In this document: positions 21,131 to 27,073 of the stretch, piece after piece
Position numbering within the stretch: position 1 is the stretch's first letter
Layout of the letters: each line of letters starts with the position of its first letter
From: an uncultured cyanobacterium
Lineage (GTDB): Bacteria > Cyanobacteriota > Cyanobacteriia > Cyanobacteriales > CAWCAG01
DNA length: 64,000 nt
Direction: 5' to 3'
Assembly (NCBI GenBank): GCA_963793425.1
Contig: CAWCAG010000005.1
Location: 1,920,001 to 1,984,000 of the forward strand
Translations under genes and position numbers: made by a program
The notes under the pieces: model-generated
Databases searched by the model: none
Seen by the model: the letters and a program-made list of their open reading frames with translations, nothing else
What the model was told of the DNA's origin: nothing

Positions 21131-24100
21131 TTAATGCTTACTGGTGATTGCTTGTTTGATTTTTCTCCACTGTTGCCGTAGGACAATGGCTAATTTTCTT
21201 TGGAAGCGTTTGATACGGGCGATGAGGGGAAAGTAGCGGACTTTTTCAGGATAAACGGGAATAAAATCTAAGTTCTCTTTGCTGTAGCGGACTGCTAGAC
21301 TTCTGGCGAGAGGAAATATTTCATCATTATAAATGTTTACTTGGAGTAGTTTAATTAGCTTTTCTAAAGCTTTTAAATTACCGATTTTACCCAAAGCCTC
21401 TACCGCCCTTGATCTAAAATAACTATTAGAGTGATTAAGAACAGCAATTAAAGCTTCTACTCCTTGGGCATTGCCGATTTTACTCAAAGCCAATGCCGCA
21501 CTCAATCTAACATCACTATCAAAGTGATTAAGAGCGGCAATTAAAGCATTTACTGCTTGAGTATTTCCTATCTTACCTAAAGCCTCTGCCGCACTCCATC
21601 CAACATCACTATCAGAGTGATTAAGAGCAGTGATTAAAGCATTTACTGCTTGAGTATTTCCTATCTTACCTAAAGCAGATGTCGCACTCAATCTAACATC
21701 ACTATAAGAGTGATCAAGAGCAGTAATTAAAGCTTCTACTGCTTGGGCGTTGCCAACTTTACCCAAAGCCTCTGCCGCACTCCTTCTAACATAAATATCA
21801 AAGTGATTAAGAGCAGTAATTAAAGCTCCTACTGCTTGAGTATTTCCTATCTTACCTAAAGCCTCTGCCGCACCACTTCTAACATCACTATAAGAGTGAT
21901 TAAGAGCAGTAATTAAAGCTCCTACTCCTTGGGCATTACCAATTTTACCCAATGCAAATGCCACACTCAATTTAACATCACCATTAGAGTTATCTAAAGC
22001 AGCAATTAAAGCTTCTACTCCTTGGGCATTACCGATTTTACCTAAAGCAGATGCTGCAATCCATCCAACATCACTATCAGAGTGATTAAGAGCAGTAATT
22101 AAAGCTTCTACTACTTGGGCATTATCAATTTCACCTAAAGCATTTGCTGCAATCCTTCTAACATCACTATTAGAGTCATAGAGAGCGGTAATTAAAGCTT
22201 CTACTACTTGGGCATTATCAATTTTACCTAAAGCATTTGCTGCAATCCTTCTAACATCACTATTAGAGTCATAGAGAGCGGTAATTAAAGCTTTTACTCC
22301 TTGGGTATTACCAATTTTACCCAAAGCCTTTGCTGCAATCCATTTAACATTACTATCAGAGTCATCAAGAGCAGTAATTAAAGCTTTTACTCCCTGGGGG
22401 TTACCAATTTGATCCAAAGCTAATGCAGCACTCAATTTAACAAAGATATCAGAGTCATCTAAAGCAGCAATCAAAGCTTCTTCTACTCCTTGGGCATTAC
22501 CGATTTGACCCAAAGCAGATGCTGCAATCTTTCTAACATTACTATCAGAGTCATCAAGAGCAGCAATTAAAGCTTCTACTCCCTGGGGGTTAGTTGTTTG
22601 ACCCAAAACATCTGCCGCACTCCTTATAACAAAGATATCAGAGTGATCAAGAGCAGCAATTAAAGCTTTTACTGCTTGGGCATTACCAATTTTACCCAAA
22701 GCATCTGCCGCACTCGATCTAAAATAACTCTCGGAGTCATTTAAAATAGCAATTAAAGCTTCTACTCCTTGGGCATTACCAATTTTACCCAAAGCCTTTG
22801 CTGCAATCCATTTAACATTACTATCAGAGTGATTAAGAGCAGTAATTAAGGCTTCTACTGCTTGGGCATTACTTATTTCAGCAAAAATCACTACAACAGA
22901 AGTTACAAATTCAGCATCAGGATAAGCAAGCCAAAACTGATAAACTTCCTCAACAATCCTCCCAACTGAAGCATCCTCAACCTCTTTCCCCTCAGCAACA
23001 CATCGCCCCGCCAACAACAATAAAGTCCGAAAAATATCATCCTTCTCCCCCATAATCGCCTGCAACAAGGGCAAAGGATCATCCATCAATCCTGCGAACA
23101 AAGTTAAAGTCTCATGCCAATCAAAATCCCAAAAATGTTCCTTCGCCAAAGCCACACCATTACTTGCATAGTTTAAATAAGCTGCGGTCAAATACTCCTG
23201 AAAAGTGCGATGCAAAAACAGATACTTATTTCCATCCCTGTCTAACTTCTGAATAATGCCATCCTCTTCCGTCAACTCCCCAATCAACTCCGTAGCGGTA
23301 ACATTGCGAAAATCACTACCACAATCCCCCCGCAAAAACTCTTCAATCTTCTCTCTCAACTCCCGCAACTCAAAAACCTCTTGACTCTGGCAACTAAACT
23401 CATAAGCCAAAAACTCCAACAATTCCGTCTTCGCCACCACCCAACCAGATTCAGCCCCCAAACGCCGATTATCCTTGCGCCATTGACTGAGCATATACTC
23501 AACCGCTTTTTCATAAACCTGACCACGTTTAGCCGGGAGAGTAATACCCTTTTCTTGATAAAGGCTGCAAAGTAAAGATAACAGTAAAGGATTCTGTGCC
23601 AAACCACTGATTTGCGGTTTCTGGCGTAACTCCTCAATTAACCCAGAAGCAGAAATATCTTTCTCTTCTCCCTTCCCCAGAGAAACTGAGAGAGATTCCT
23701 CCGCATTCTTAAACCAAGTCTCAATATACTTTTCCGTTTGCCCTTGATTAAAAGGCACAATCTCCACATCCTTCCCCCCAGCAATAAAACTGCCCCCATA
23801 ACCAACAATGCGGGAGGTGCAGATTATCGGACAAGGATAATATTTGGCGAAGCGGTTTAACTTGTCTTTTAGTTCCTGGCGCTGATCCTTCGGCACTTCA
23901 TCTAAAGCATCCAACAACAGCAAACATTCACCCTTAGCTAACTTATCTTCCAAGAGATGGGCAAGGTTAGGATAACTATACCGATAATCCCGTTGTAGAA
24001 GTTGGGGAATAATCTCAAAAATTTCTCCTTCCCTTTCAGCTAACTCTGAAAGCCTGAATAGCAAGGGAAAAAACTGTTCCGGAATAGTTTTTTCCTGATT

Positions 24101-24760
24101 TAAAAGCTTTTCCCTTTCTTCTTGGGCTACCCTCAAAGCTTCTCGCCGCAACAAAGTTGACTTTCCCATGCCCGGATCTGCTAAAACCATGATTCTGTTA
24201 TGGTTTCGCTTCGCTTCTACCCAATCAACTTGAGTTTTCCTTGTTTCTTCAACTATTCCTTTCAGGGCATAAGCTTTTTTTAATTCCGCTTCCGACTCGC
24301 TATAACCCCAAGTAGTCTCAACTTCGTGGCGATATCTTCTTTCTAAAGTGACTTGAATGGGAATGTACTGCTCTTTAAAAATAAAACTATTCCGCGTGTG
24401 GAATAGTTTTAGATATTTGTATTCCTTTGCAACCTCCTCAAGAAACTGACAAACTTCTTCTGTCGTCGGCGGCTCTGATTTTTTGTTAGCAGGTTCAGAA
24501 TCACTAGGTAAGTTAGAAACTTGTTCTTGCAAAACCTCTCGAATAACTTGCTTCAGTCTTTCTGCTTCAAAACCTTGATAAGTACGATTGTCAAAGGTGA
24601 TTTTTTCCGCAGTCAAGTTAAAATTCCCTTCACCCAACTGCACATTATTGAAATCCCCGGTAATATTCAACTCAGCTTTTAATTGAGCTAAATCATTCTT
24701 ACTATGTTTACCCGCAACAATACGTTGTAAAATTTCGCTCCATTTAGAGGATTTAGCCAT
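21131..24760 (-). CDS. NLR-like protein: EAD10-like N-terminus, NACHT NTPase and HEAT/PBS-lyase repeats
   Basis: Walker A ADPGMGKST, Walker B LLLLDALDE, CTSR, NPLLL and FLHRTFQEYL; 16 x 31-aa HEAT repeats. Confidence 0.92.
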   Translation of the reverse strand: MAKSSKWSEILQRIVAGKHSKNDLAQLKAELNITGDFNNVQLGEGNFNLTAEKITFDNRTYQGFEAERLKQVIREVLQEQVSNLPSDSEPANKKSEPPTTEEVCQFLEEVAKEYKYLKLFHTRNSFIFKEQYIPIQVTLERRYRHEVETTWGYSESEAELKKAYALKGIVEETRKTQVDWVEAKRNHNRIMVLADPGMGKSTLLRREALRVAQEEREKLLNQEKTIPEQFFPLLFRLSELAEREGEIFEIIPQLLQRDYRYSYPNLAHLLEDKLAKGECLLLLDALDEVPKDQRQELKDKLNRFAKYYPCPIICTSRIVGYGGSFIAGGKDVEIVPFNQGQTEKYIETWFKNAEESLSVSLGKGEEKDISASGLIEELRQKPQISGLAQNPLLLSLLCSLYQEKGITLPAKRGQVYEKAVEYMLSQWRKDNRRLGAESGWVVAKTELLEFLAYEFSCQSQEVFELRELREKIEEFLRGDCGSDFRNVTATELIGELTEEDGIIQKLDRDGNKYLFLHRTFQEYLTAAYLNYASNGVALAKEHFWDFDWHETLTLFAGLMDDPLPLLQAIMGEKDDIFRTLLLLAGRCVAEGKEVEDASVGRIVEEVYQFWLAYPDAEFVTSVVVIFAEISNAQAVEALITALNHSDSNVKWIAAKALGKIGNAQGVEALIAILNDSESYFRSSAADALGKIGNAQAVKALIAALDHSDIFVIRSAADVLGQTTNPQGVEALIAALDDSDSNVRKIAASALGQIGNAQGVEEALIAALDDSDIFVKLSAALALDQIGNPQGVKALITALDDSDSNVKWIAAKALGKIGNTQGVKALITALYDSNSDVRRIAANALGKIDNAQVVEALITALYDSNSDVRRIAANALGEIDNAQVVEALITALNHSDSDVGWIAASALGKIGNAQGVEALIAALDNSNGDVKLSVAFALGKIGNAQGVGALITALNHSYSDVRSGAAEALGKIGNTQAVGALITALNHFDIYVRRSAAEALGKVGNAQAVEALITALDHSYSDVRLSATSALGKIGNTQAVNALITALNHSDSDVGWSAAEALGKIGNTQAVNALIAALNHFDSDVRLSAALALSKIGNAQGVEALIAVLNHSNSYFRSRAVEALGKIGNLKALEKLIKLLQVNIYNDEIFPLARSLAVRYSKENLDFIPVYPEKVRYFPLIARIKRFQRKLAIVLRQQWRKIKQAITSKH
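21380..22870 (-). repeat. Sixteen tandem ~93-bp intragenic repeats encoding HEAT units
   Basis: Consensus NAQxVEALIxALxxSDSxVRxxAAxALGKIG; near-identical DNA between units. Confidence 0.95.
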
Positions 24761-24769
24761 AGCTAACCT

Positions 24770-25175
24770 TTACGGCTTATTCGAGGAATGATCAGTAGAA
24801 TCTTCGTTATGCTGAATATTGACGTTGTTATTGTTATTGCCAAACTGAACATTATTGCGATCGCCTGTAATCGTCGGACTGTTAGAAAGAAGTCCGCTAT
24901 TAGAAATAGTATCTTGGCTTTGATTAGCAGGATTAATGGGCTGCTTTTCCGGAGCTGGATCTGATTTTCTGAACGTGGCGTATTCCCAACAAGACTGCCA
25001 AACCAGTAAGCCCCCACAATACTAGCTGAATCAAGTCTGTTAGCCCTTGAATAACATTACTATTCGCTTCGACAAACTGTAACAAAACTGGCATCCATTG
25101 TTCAGCCGATAACGCTAAAGCAGCAAGTAGTAAAACTACCAAGGTTGGAACGATCCACCTTGAAGAATTGTTCAT
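24770..25175 (-). pseudogene. Frameshifted small membrane protein with C-terminal Asn-rich amyloid-like motif (putative NLR effector)
   Basis: 80-aa ORF with two hydrophobic helices; the +1 frame from about 24973 reads FRKSDPAPEKQP...ITGDRNNVQFGNNNNNVNIQ...NKP*, stopping 9 nt before the NACHT ATG. Confidence 0.7.
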
Positions 25176-25291
25176 AGCAAAATTAAGTAAATTGAGGAGT
25201 CAACCATATTAGTAACCATGGTAGCCAAAAAAGTTTTGGCTAGTGGCTAGTGGCTAACGGCTAGTTGTTCTCACCCTAGCTCCCCATCTCC

Positions 25292-27073
25292 CTATTTCCC
25301 CAACTCCCCATCTCCAGGAGAAGTATCAAGAAAAGGGGAACTTTTTGGTTCAGAATCTTCTGGGGATGAATTAGAAGGATTAGGATTAGGAGAATTATTT
25401 TGCAACAAAAAAGTTGCTTCAAAGCGAGTACTTTGAGAATCTATAACTGTTGTCGTAATACCAAAAGCACGAACCCCATTAAGTAAATCCTTTTGCCCTT
25501 CCGGAAAAGCTAAAGTTCCTTTTTTGGCCATAAAATTCTCGACATCAAAAAACAACTCACTATTAACCGGGGCAAAGCCTTTTTTAACTACTTGCTTAAA
25601 CAACTGATTCGATGACAAATTACGTTTCGGTTTTGGTAAGATTTTGTTACTTATTGGAGCGCCTAAAGAAAAGAAAAATACATCTTTTGATAGCCAACCT
25701 CGTACAGCTTCTATACCACCCAGGGGAGATGTCCAATTAACCACAGGTTGCCCCCCTTGTTGAGCAGATTTCACCTGAAATTGATATCTTGTACCCATGG
25801 CTTCATCTAATTGTTGTAGGGCTTTCTCTCCGCTAGCACGATTTTGAGTTTGGGCAACGGTAATTAAAGCAGCCCCCAATTTTACCCCACCTCTATCAGT
25901 AAAATTAATTAAGTTATCTTCAGTAATAGGAGTCAAGGCAAAGGCGAAATCTTCTCCTAACCAAGGGAGAAAATCTTCTTGCCAACTCATGCCCGTGTTT
26001 TCCTGAATAACATTAGCAATAGTCTCTTCCCCAAAAGGTAAAAGGGGCAACAACTCCGCTTCACTGTCCCAACCTTGCCATTGAGTAGGAAGATTTTGCC
26101 CAGCAAAGAAAAATAAAGTCTGTTGGGGTAAGTGGGAAGCTAAACTCTTTTCCTTAAACTGGGTTAAATAATTCCCAAAAGAATTAACTGGCTGCATAAA
26201 TTCTCCCGGTTTTCCCCAAATTATCCCTTCCCAATGCAGAGATTCTGGGGTTAAGCTTAAGCTGCCTGTCACTCCTTGCCGATATTGAGTAGTAGATTCT
26301 GGGGCAGGAGCAAGAGAATTAGTTTTGGCGGTGGCAACTATTGTCGGAAAATGCCCATAAAAACGAGCAAAATCAACTTTTTTGCCTAATTGTCTCAAAG
26401 CTTTTTGATAACTAGAATCAGCTTCTAAAGATGTCTTTTCTTGGTAGCTATCAATCACTTTTTCCATGGCTTGGGAGTTGTTAGCAATAACCAAAAAACT
26501 TTTAATAATTGTTAGGGAATATCTTTGAGATTGACTATTTTGAATCTCTTCAATCTCCACTCCTTTATAGGTGCGTCGCAGTTTCTTACTTTCCAGGTCA
26601 GAGTTAGGAGAATCCAAAAGCTGCCCTGCTTGGACGGAATTCTCCATCGGTAAAATAAATACCATTGGCTTAACCAAATCCTCTGAAGGAGAAGCATTCG
26701 GTACAATTAAGGCAGATTGAGTTGGGGGCAAATAAGCAACGGTGATCTCCTCTCCTACCCAAGGTTGGATATGGGTTTCATAACTATAACCATTGGCTTG
26801 CAAAAAAGTATTGCTAAGCTCAGAAAAATACTTTTTAATCCTCTGTTGACTTCCCTTTGTCCCTAACTGTTGCAATTGCTGCCATTGTTCTTCATCCGTA
26901 GAAATTGAGGCAGCAAAAATCACTTCTTGGGGAACTAATTCTGCCCCCGTTAGCTTTTGCGCCGCAAAAAAATAGGGCCGTACCAACAACCAATAAATTG
27001 CTGTGCCACTACCGAGTAAAATAGCCGTACCTAAAGTCGGTAAGAGAAAGCGCCTAAATTTTTTCTTGACCAT
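25292..27073 (-). CDS. DUF3352-family protein
   Basis: N-terminal TM; IQPWVGEEITVA and DFLPWLGEDFAFAL repeated motifs. Confidence 0.75.
   Translation of the reverse strand: MVKKKFRRFLLPTLGTAILLGSGTAIYWLLVRPYFFAAQKLTGAELVPQEVIFAASISTDEEQWQQLQQLGTKGSQQRIKKYFSELSNTFLQANGYSYETHIQPWVGEEITVAYLPPTQSALIVPNASPSEDLVKPMVFILPMENSVQAGQLLDSPNSDLESKKLRRTYKGVEIEEIQNSQSQRYSLTIIKSFLVIANNSQAMEKVIDSYQEKTSLEADSSYQKALRQLGKKVDFARFYGHFPTIVATAKTNSLAPAPESTTQYRQGVTGSLSLTPESLHWEGIIWGKPGEFMQPVNSFGNYLTQFKEKSLASHLPQQTLFFFAGQNLPTQWQGWDSEAELLPLLPFGEETIANVIQENTGMSWQEDFLPWLGEDFAFALTPITEDNLINFTDRGGVKLGAALITVAQTQNRASGEKALQQLDEAMGTRYQFQVKSAQQGGQPVVNWTSPLGGIEAVRGWLSKDVFFFSLGAPISNKILPKPKRNLSSNQLFKQVVKKGFAPVNSELFFDVENFMAKKGTLAFPEGQKDLLNGVRAFGITTTVIDSQSTRFEATFLLQNNSPNPNPSNSSPEDSEPKSSPFLDTSPGDGELGK

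Follow-up and report, generated by a model that had tools for sequence, protein, structure and literature searches.

A Predicted Two-Gene EAD10-NACHT Module with a Frameshifted Two-Helix Membrane Effector in an Uncultured Cyanobacterium

Gene Arrangement of the Locus

The locus studied lies on the minus strand at positions 21131-25175 of a 64,000-nt stretch of DNA (the window; contig CAWCAG010000005.1) from an uncultured cyanobacterium, whose genome was searched over 5.28 Mb. It comprises a large sensor gene, whose product has an EAD10 adaptor domain, a NACHT nucleoside triphosphatase (NTPase) and an array of HEAT repeats, and directly upstream a small gene of a putative membrane effector, which is interrupted by a frameshift. 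The two proteins have a short motif in common. As judged from sequence, the pair is interpreted as a cell-death or defence module similar to NOD-like receptors (NLR), that is, of the class of signal transduction ATPases with numerous domains (STAND), in which EAD10 would couple the sensor to the membrane effector; this reading is given a probability of about 0.7.

The sensor gene (21131..24760) is an open reading frame (ORF) of 1209 amino acids (aa) and starts with MAKSSKWSEILQRIVAGKHSKNDLAQLKAELNITGDFNNVQLGEG. Pfam recognises EAD10 (PF19954) on aa 1-76 (24533..24760), with E 2.6e-12 and 47 bits against a cut-off of 24.1, and NACHT on aa 190-352 (23705..24193), with 28.8 bits against a cut-off of 26.7; the P-loop GMGKST of this module was read from the sequence. 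The HEAT array at 21377..22872 was delimited by Tandem Repeats Finder as a 93-nt unit repeated 16.1 times with 81% matches, and gives signals of HEAT_2 (E 9e-173) and HEAT_PBS in Pfam. With a NACHT module and its P-loop followed by a HEAT repeat array, the protein has the composition of a NACHT STAND NTPase. The sensor-side motif ITGDFNNVQLG is located at 24632..24664, in the first beta segment of EAD10 according to the sequence and the EAD10 alignment.

The effector gene is distributed over two frames. An ORF of 80 aa (24933..25175) has hydrophobic stretches at about aa 7-24 and 48-65 in the Kyte-Doolittle plot and represents the predicted two-helix membrane domain, which is cut 15 codons past helix 2. 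The tail is coded in the +1 frame relative to this ORF (24770..24964), as found by reading of the frames and by alignment with the homologous protein P0004 described below. It contains a Pro/Ser/Asn-rich linker, the effector-side motif ITGDRNNVQFG at 24839..24871 (frame reading, BLASTP and pattern search of the genome) with NNNNNVNIQ following, and a stop at 24770-24772. The tail frame is open from stop to stop over 83 codons (24770..25021) and has no ATG, GTG or TTG. The two frames overlap at 24933-25021, where an AAAA run at 24965..24968 is the sole homopolymer; the +1 shift needed is placed there by frame reading, and the run is likely the site of a one-base insertion. Crossing from the 80-aa frame to the tail frame at this run gives a product of about 133-134 aa. 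Only 9 nt (24761..24769) separate the tail stop from the sensor ATG, a spacing that resembles operon-like coupling. A preliminary description of the window, made from its letters only, had reported both motifs, the upstream frame missing from its ORF list with the stop 9 nt before the NACHT ATG, and a joined protein of about 134 aa; positions, sequences and product length were all verified.

Sequence Match between Effector Tail and Sensor

When the tail was compared with the first 120 residues of the sensor in BLASTP, 11 of 17 residues were identical (E 1e-5); the stretch of tail and sensor that can be aligned is 20 aa long, with 11/20 identities. The pattern [IVL]TG[DE].NN[IV]Q[IVLF]G occurs exactly twice in the six frames of the genome, and both occurrences are the sites described here, about 200 nt apart on the same strand. 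The motif core is identical at 26 of 33 nt, and four of the nine shared residues are coded by different synonymous codons, which indicates a likeness kept at the protein level and not a recent DNA duplication. Beyond the core, the extension is identical at 37 of 60 nt. A 69-codon open frame has a chance of about 1.2% in this window of 39.7% G+C.

It is extremely unlikely that the likeness is due to chance or represents a functionless remnant of a local duplication of the sensor 5' end, short as the motifs are (11 residues) and Asn-rich and of low complexity as the tail is. Such an origin is at odds with a pattern found only twice in the genome and with nucleotide differences, four of them synonymous in the core, that are unlike those of a recent duplication. 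It also does not agree with P0004, where this motif recurs with equal spacing from the membrane domain, nor with the same design at 12 further EAD10 loci.

On the sensor side the motif is part of a recognised domain. The isolated N-terminus of the sensor scores 52.1 bits against the Pfam EAD10 model, and in the comparison of the EAD10 domains found it is the most divergent, with 51.8 bits vs. 75-121 bits for most others. An AlphaFold2 (AF2) model of residues 1-95, computed with 24 EAD10 sequences, has a mean predicted local distance difference test (pLDDT) of 79.5 and a predicted template modelling score (pTM) of 0.65. Residues 1-82 are folded in it as one compact alpha+beta domain with helices at 3-15 and 21-30, five short strands within 31-62 and a helix at 64-82, and the pLDDT of the beta part is 81-90. 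The sensor motif aligns with the first beta segment of canonical EAD10, for example with the GDRNVVQLG stretch and with IVGGDRNVVQLG in L017, and NVNI of the effector tail aligns with the second beta segment. The earlier suggestion that the motif is embedded in an EAD10-like domain agrees with the Pfam match, which covers the sensor-side motif. A Foldseek search of the EAD10 model in the PDB gave nothing at E ≤ 0.001 (best E 1.0).

EAD10 Loci in Related Genomes

EAD10 was surveyed in 151 genomes of the order and is present in 15 of them, often in clusters of up to nine genes. At 31 EAD10 loci, ORFs of at least 60 codons on the same strand and ending within about 330 nt upstream were considered, and their last 60 residues were aligned to EAD10. 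An upstream tail matches the beta part of EAD10 at 13 of the 31 loci, with scores of 38-89; the best upstream tail scores 17-25 at 14 loci, and no qualifying upstream ORF exists at the remaining four. Matching tails are placed on the beta part of EAD10 by alignment (consensus QLGKYNVNIGEGKDIHIGDR), and for three of them the alignment takes in a degenerate first helix as well. Upstream ORFs at the matched loci have 250-361 codons, except for the focal locus and one ORF of 152 codons. Of the 12 other upstream proteins, the two that were scanned or read individually are both caspase-like (Peptidase_C14), and the rest are similar to them in length and sequence.

The scores of cognate tail/EAD10 pairs sum to 789, vs. 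a mean of 531 (sd 45) for permuted pairs, and this sum was reached in none of 100,000 shuffles, a figure that overstates independence because the 13 matched loci are related. The focal pair ranks first of 13 in both directions. Divergent variants match only their own partner or their nearest relative; these are GKNVVG.I.G (L001 and L031), GNVNFGNIARAGEIRI (L023) and ITGD.NNVQ.G (the focal locus). When compared with canonical EAD10 domains from elsewhere in the survey, the focal tail reaches scores of 54 and 46. It spans about 20 residues of the 77-position EAD10 model and thus represents a partial copy of the first two beta segments. The preliminary description had proposed that an NLR and an adjacent effector are paired here by a matching motif; the motif match and the pairing of tails with EAD10 across the family support this. 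Its expectation of co-variation between the motif and the neighbouring NLR is borne out by cognate pairs that exceed the shuffles and by the focal pair, first in both directions, and four caspase pairs in which the partner is not ranked first are considered below.

EAD10 genes can be densely packed, with six matches within about 19 kb in one genome (G017:C136) and nine within about 18 kb in another (G022:C89); loci L013, L014, L027, L028, L035, L038 and L040 are in clusters. Such density suggests that many sensors share few effectors. A second EAD10 pair was found in the same genome as the focal locus, outside the window (C5:21207-24434, L001). There, a 322-aa Peptidase_C14 caspase ending with GKNVVGSIKGDNIQVGDRT is located 30 nt upstream of a 496-aa EAD10-GUN4 protein with GKNVVGKIEGQDIQIGDRN. 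On contig C1 of this genome, at about 358.4-359.2 kb, a 141-codon helical ORF ending with NSNVQLGDKNVEIKEVKGDANF is directly upstream of a P-loop ORF (GLGGAGKS); the two may form a pair of the Bell type, with bacterial amyloid signalling sequences (BASS).

The Two-Helix Membrane Family

A word-based search started from the 80-aa ORF returned nothing else, and an exhaustive phmmer search recognised 104 relatives at E ≤ 1e-3, in which the domain is always N-terminal. In the alignment of this family W27, F34, N38, IQGL at 42-45, Q50 and LW at 53-54 are conserved. Its members are mostly from Chloroflexota metagenome bins. When 18 long relatives were scanned, 15 had a STAND NTPase (NACHT, NB-ARC or another kind) and behind it FGE-sulfatase, TPR, HEAT or CARDB; two of the other three gave no match and one is of low complexity. 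At all ten loci from species genomes, mostly Anaerolineae bins, the two-helix domain is fused to a long P-loop protein. Nine loci are from metagenomes and comprise four fusions (one split by a frameshift), one apparent broken fusion, two loci truncated by the contig border, one ORF of 119 aa at the end of a contig and one stand-alone protein (L079). The membrane domain belongs to a STAND-associated family, as seen from these domain arrangements. This family behaves like a classical NLR N-terminal death domain, being mostly fused and in few cases split, with a matching tail.

Two relatives resemble the focal effector closely in design. P0004 has 125 aa in a single frame; its residues 3-66 align with the 80-aa frame and its residues 87-107 with the +1 frame (11/21 identities, E 5e-4). 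Its ITGDRNRVQ starts at about residue 99, vs. about 101 in the joined focal reading. Because P0004 covers both focal frames in one, these were once one gene. The stand-alone protein of L079 has 122 aa, and its tail finds a match (12/23 identities, E 3e-4) in the N-terminus of the following ORF, whose start is about 40 nt downstream. Intact homologues, and homologues standing upstream of a matching gene, had been named beforehand as the check for the joined reading: P0004, whose tail motif and its spacing from the membrane domain are the same, represents the former, and L079 the latter.

The effector had also been described as a two-helix membrane protein different from Bell. Two hydrophobic helices are present, and a difference from Bell is suggested in so far as hhalign of the two-helix family with the upstream protein of L043, for which Bell identity is only presumed, gave a probability of 0.12. 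The two-helix family has no model in Pfam, NCBIfam or PADLOC, and neither the proteins nor the tail had a meaningful match in NCBIfam or PADLOC. In 40 relatives searched at the DNA level, matches were confined to a dispersed intergenic repeat, with no effector homologue. With P0004 as query, the ESM Atlas gave nothing but unnamed clusters, whose values of 0.83-0.84 are too low to count as evidence.

The Frameshift

Contigs from four of four public metagenome runs span positions 24600-25300 with one substitution (24734) and no indel, at word depths of 6.5-24.7; these four runs belong to one study that is possibly the source of the assembly itself, rare variants are lost in contigs, and there is no record of the library type. 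The AAAA run is consistent in four assemblies, so an assembly error is unlikely. An intact gene in the organism, broken only by an assembly or sequencing error, would explain why the break is within a homopolymer and why the +1 frame looks undamaged, open for all 64 remaining codons and with a well conserved motif. The absence of an indel at AAAA in the contigs of all four runs and the short length of the run, four bases being little for a systematic error, make this explanation improbable.

Programmed +1 ribosomal frameshifting at AAA-A, by which a small amount of the full-length toxic effector would be made, was considered as well. After slipping by +1 on the AAAA run, a lysine tRNA that reads AAA can again pair with AAA, the downstream frame is intact, and a limited dose is sensible for a killer protein. 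The next codon is ATC, so that neither a rare nor a stop codon is in the A site, and no Shine-Dalgarno-like stimulator was noted upstream. P0004 and all fused forms are in one frame, and no other genome carries the same site (40 relatives by DNA, 400 cyanobacterial genomes by family). Programmed shifting is thus very unlikely.

The extra A parts the membrane domain from the tail, and the effector as encoded is no longer recruitable. The +1 frame is still clean, which indicates a break that either is of recent date or is being tolerated. In this population the module has probably lost its coupling, and on balance it seems to be non-functional at present in this genome.

Sensor Lineage and Exchange of the N-Terminal Module

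The closest NACHT bodies, with 46-66% identity, align with the sensor only from residue 89 or later, with one exception. The N-termini of close homologues are different: a trypsin-like domain is present in L042, L045 and L046, a CHAT-like domain in L044, and EAD10 with a caspase upstream in L047. The closest homologue of the sensor is a 1411-aa protein of the same-genus genome G001 (L081, C7:254239-260361), with 75% nt identity over the body; it is at a non-syntenic position and has a trypsin-like protease domain in place of the focal EAD10. Another NACHT-HEAT homologue (L043, G046:C4:180656-184975) is 57% identical and begins with ENWQGINTKDGVNTIKDNTINIYNN. A 139-aa helical protein upstream of it ends with ENWKGINIKGGVNTIQNNTLTIN, matching the short N-terminal motif of the NACHT protein, and by sequence this locus appears to be a classical short-motif pair within the same sensor lineage. 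The differing N-termini of close homologues show that the N-terminal module of this sensor lineage is freely exchanged, as would be expected if the combination of EAD10 and a separate two-helix protein takes the place of an effector.

The 16 units of the HEAT array (93 nt each) have high internal conservation with their 81% matches. In the available text of Dyrka et al. (10.1101/2020.01.06.895854), high internal repeat conservation is tied to rapid diversification of NLR repeats. An inverted repeat of 12-13 bp with a T-run is located at 24382-24411, within the NACHT coding region at aa about 117-126 and near the exchange point of the N-terminal module; it may be due to chance or be a feature of recombination or attenuation. 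A second contig of lower depth in metagenome run X4 differs from the window at 10 positions within 24618-24730, with the motif changed to ITGNLNNVQLG, and diverges completely beyond 24618. It represents a related allele or a paralogue, and no partner tail was seen with it.

Comparison with Known Systems

In the available text of Kaur et al. 2020 (PMC7159879), effector-associated domains (EADs) are small non-enzymatic modules that occur in two copies, the first carried by a core NTPase and the second by an effector, which is often the product of the adjacent gene. Adjacent copies are most alike and homotypic coupling is proposed there, and EAD10 is one of three EADs with alpha+beta character. 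The focal pair agrees with EAD10-coupled conflict systems, as far as these are described in the accessible parts of PMC7159879 and PMC8195603, in a STAND NTPase with N-terminal EAD10, in an adjacent effector gene with a putative, partial cognate copy, the adjacent copies being most alike, in the occurrence of the same effector domain elsewhere fused directly to an NTPase, and in the presence in cyanobacteria of multicellular habit. It differs in that the effector side has only about 20 residues, the first two beta segments, and is below the detection of Pfam EAD10, and in that the effector is a small two-helix membrane protein, whereas the effectors in those parts of the papers are mostly enzymatic. 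Further differences are a sensor EAD10 more divergent than any other found here, and a frameshift in the effector gene.

BASS pairs, according to the consulted sections of 10.1101/2020.01.06.895854, have a C-terminal effector motif and a matching N-terminal NLR motif of about 20-25 aa, and collinear genes with a gap of ≤ 10 bp, and the matched motifs associated with NLRs already include effectors other than Bell, namely CHAT, TIR2, alpha/beta-hydrolase and guanylate cyclase. Within the limits of that text, the focal pair has in common with Bell/BASS pairs a short G/N/I-rich motif on the effector C-terminus and in the NLR N-terminal region, collinear genes (with a 9-nt gap here), a small effector of 120-140 aa predicted to act on membranes, and the existence of "all-in-one" fused forms. 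In the focal sensor, however, the motif is internal to a predicted alpha+beta domain and not a free N-terminal peptide, and the focal effector has two hydrophobic helices and a basic N-terminus, whereas Bell is portrayed there as a bundle of five helices that bears an acidic residue at position 2-3. The bNACHT proteins of Kibby et al. (10.1101/2022.07.19.500537) likewise have NACHT and HEAT, and EAD and transmembrane (TM) are among the domain abbreviations listed. In the focal pair, unlike these, the TM module is split from the NACHT protein and joined to it by an adaptor motif, and the two-helix family is not named in the available text of that paper. Within the library covered, a literature search found no paper that names the two-helix family or equates EAD10 with a BASS family, and the supplements of Dyrka et al. 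may bear on this point.

The principle itself is already published, as EAD coupling by Kaur et al. and as NLR-associated matched motifs by Dyrka et al., and is unchanged by the focal pair, whose copy in this genome is probably broken. New here are the two-helix membrane effector family, the pairing with EAD10 through a partial, beta-only copy, and the frameshifted state. By its sequence features, the pair would add a membrane executioner to the effectors that NLR-like sensors of cyanobacteria can recruit through EAD10. The beta-only tail is also a compact test case for EADs as folded homotypic domains vs. amyloid-like templating.

In Podospora, the NLR NWD2 activates the separate membrane-targeting executioner HET-S through a shared short motif, and the two genes are adjacent. 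The focal pair would share with it and with Bab/Agp, in so far as the latter is covered by the text at hand, a sensor that triggers a separate membrane executioner, the short motif in common and adjacent genes. It differs from both in having no sequence or fold relation to HeLo or Bab, in the motif family and in being known only from its sequence.

Proposed Mechanism

As reconstructed, the original effector of about 134 aa starts with the two-helix membrane domain, continues with a Pro/Ser/Asn linker and ends in a tail, which seems to copy the first two beta segments of the unusual EAD10 variant of its own sensor. Binding of a ligand by the HEAT array would cause oligomerisation of the NACHT module, and the oligomer would bring the EAD10 domains into a cluster. 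Clustered EAD10 could then capture matching effector tails by homotypic beta-sheet interaction, so that the two-helix domains would be concentrated in the membrane, with membrane damage and cell death or arrest as the presumed outcome. Binding of the tail, damage of the membrane and a role in defence are postulated by analogy with the systems compared above.

The beta contact could be either a stable amyloid or a discrete complex formed by strand addition. A partial tail without helices, together with the composition of the matched segments, fits amyloid-like templating, and the folded AF2 model with an internal motif fits the addition of a beta-strand to a globular domain. Segments that match in the 13 pairs have more G (1.9x), N (2.2x) and I (2.0x) than expected and less P (0.13x) and L (0.30x).

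In strict prion-like amyloid signalling of the BASS/HET-s kind, the motif of the oligomerised sensor would template a cross-beta conversion of the effector tail and thereby activate the membrane domain. The architecture of the locus is of BASS type in the position of both motifs, the collinear genes and the 9-nt gap, and the enrichment of G/N/I and depletion of P/L resemble the reported BASS bias, from which the segments deviate in showing no depletion of K and hardly any enrichment of Q and V. Having only the beta half of EAD10 and no helices, the effector tail cannot fold as a whole domain. The sensor motif, on the other hand, starts at residue 33, after two helices, and is not at a free N-terminus; AF2 gives residues 1-82 a compact alpha+beta fold with pLDDT 81-90 in the beta part, and EAD10 is described as an alpha+beta domain in the available text of Kaur et al. 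(PMC7159879). In L043, the closest NACHT homologue elsewhere, the N-terminus does carry a short motif that matches a helical protein encoded upstream, and the accessible part of the report on Bab/Agp of E. coli (10.1101/2024.11.07.622273) provides a case of amyloid signalling in phage defence. No RHIM or other amyloid-family profile was matched. Taken together, strict amyloid signalling is possible at this locus, with the odds against it.

The label "RHIM-type", given to the motif in the preliminary description, was rejected. Pfam RHIM (PF12721) had no match at E ≤ 10 for the sensor N-terminus, the tail, P0004 or canonical EAD10, and the EAD10 profile compared with PDB sequences gave nothing below E 0.047 and matched no RIPK chain. 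NVQLG and NVQFG have phi-Q-phi-G with N in place of the leading G of the RHIM-like core, which is G-phi-Q-phi-G in the available text of Dyrka et al. (10.1101/2020.01.06.895854).

In a more speculative and unlikely extension, the beta half of EAD10 would be a portable, self-templating amyloid-like tag, with EAD and BASS being one mechanism in the case of EAD10, the two-helix domain would be a new membrane-disrupting family of NLR executioners in fused and split forms, and the A4 frameshift might act as a switch, reversible or leaky, by which a lethal effector is restrained.

Several observations weigh against the interpretation as an EAD10-coupled module with a membrane effector. In the commonest pairs with caspase tails (L019, L021, L024 and L047) the cognate partner ranks only 4-8, so that pair-specific matching is clear only for the divergent variants. 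The effector tail has no match to Pfam EAD10 even at E ≤ 10, and its designation as a copy of EAD10 therefore rests on pairwise alignment. None of 400 other cyanobacterial genomes sampled yielded a member of the two-helix family, and the focal arrangement is without a cyanobacterial replicate. The ORF downstream of the L079 protein, cut by the contig end, has no recognised domain, and no longer relatives of it were found. Fused forms carry similar beta-rich stretches between the membrane domain and the NTPase, such as TIITGDYNKV (L078) and GRDV.GDVI, and for this reason the motif may be inherent in the effector family rather than serve as a tag for recruitment. AF2 modelled the membrane domain as a single long helix (pTM 0.37), which is uninformative. 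The four metagenome runs, as the possible source of the assembly, are not independent evidence for the frameshift.

Upstream Intergenic Region

The intergenic region upstream of the effector gene (25176..25291, minus strand) is the expected place of the promoter. A scan of it found no convincing sigma-70 match, with 8 sites vs. a mean of 9.4 in shuffled sequences. The region holds part of a dispersed repeat at 25233-25300, which has 13 further matches in the same genome and 15 in the same-genus genome. Contigs from all four metagenome runs branch in this repeat, at 25233/25237 and 25267. An 8-nt unit repeated 4.5 times in tandem at 25280-25315 adjoins it.

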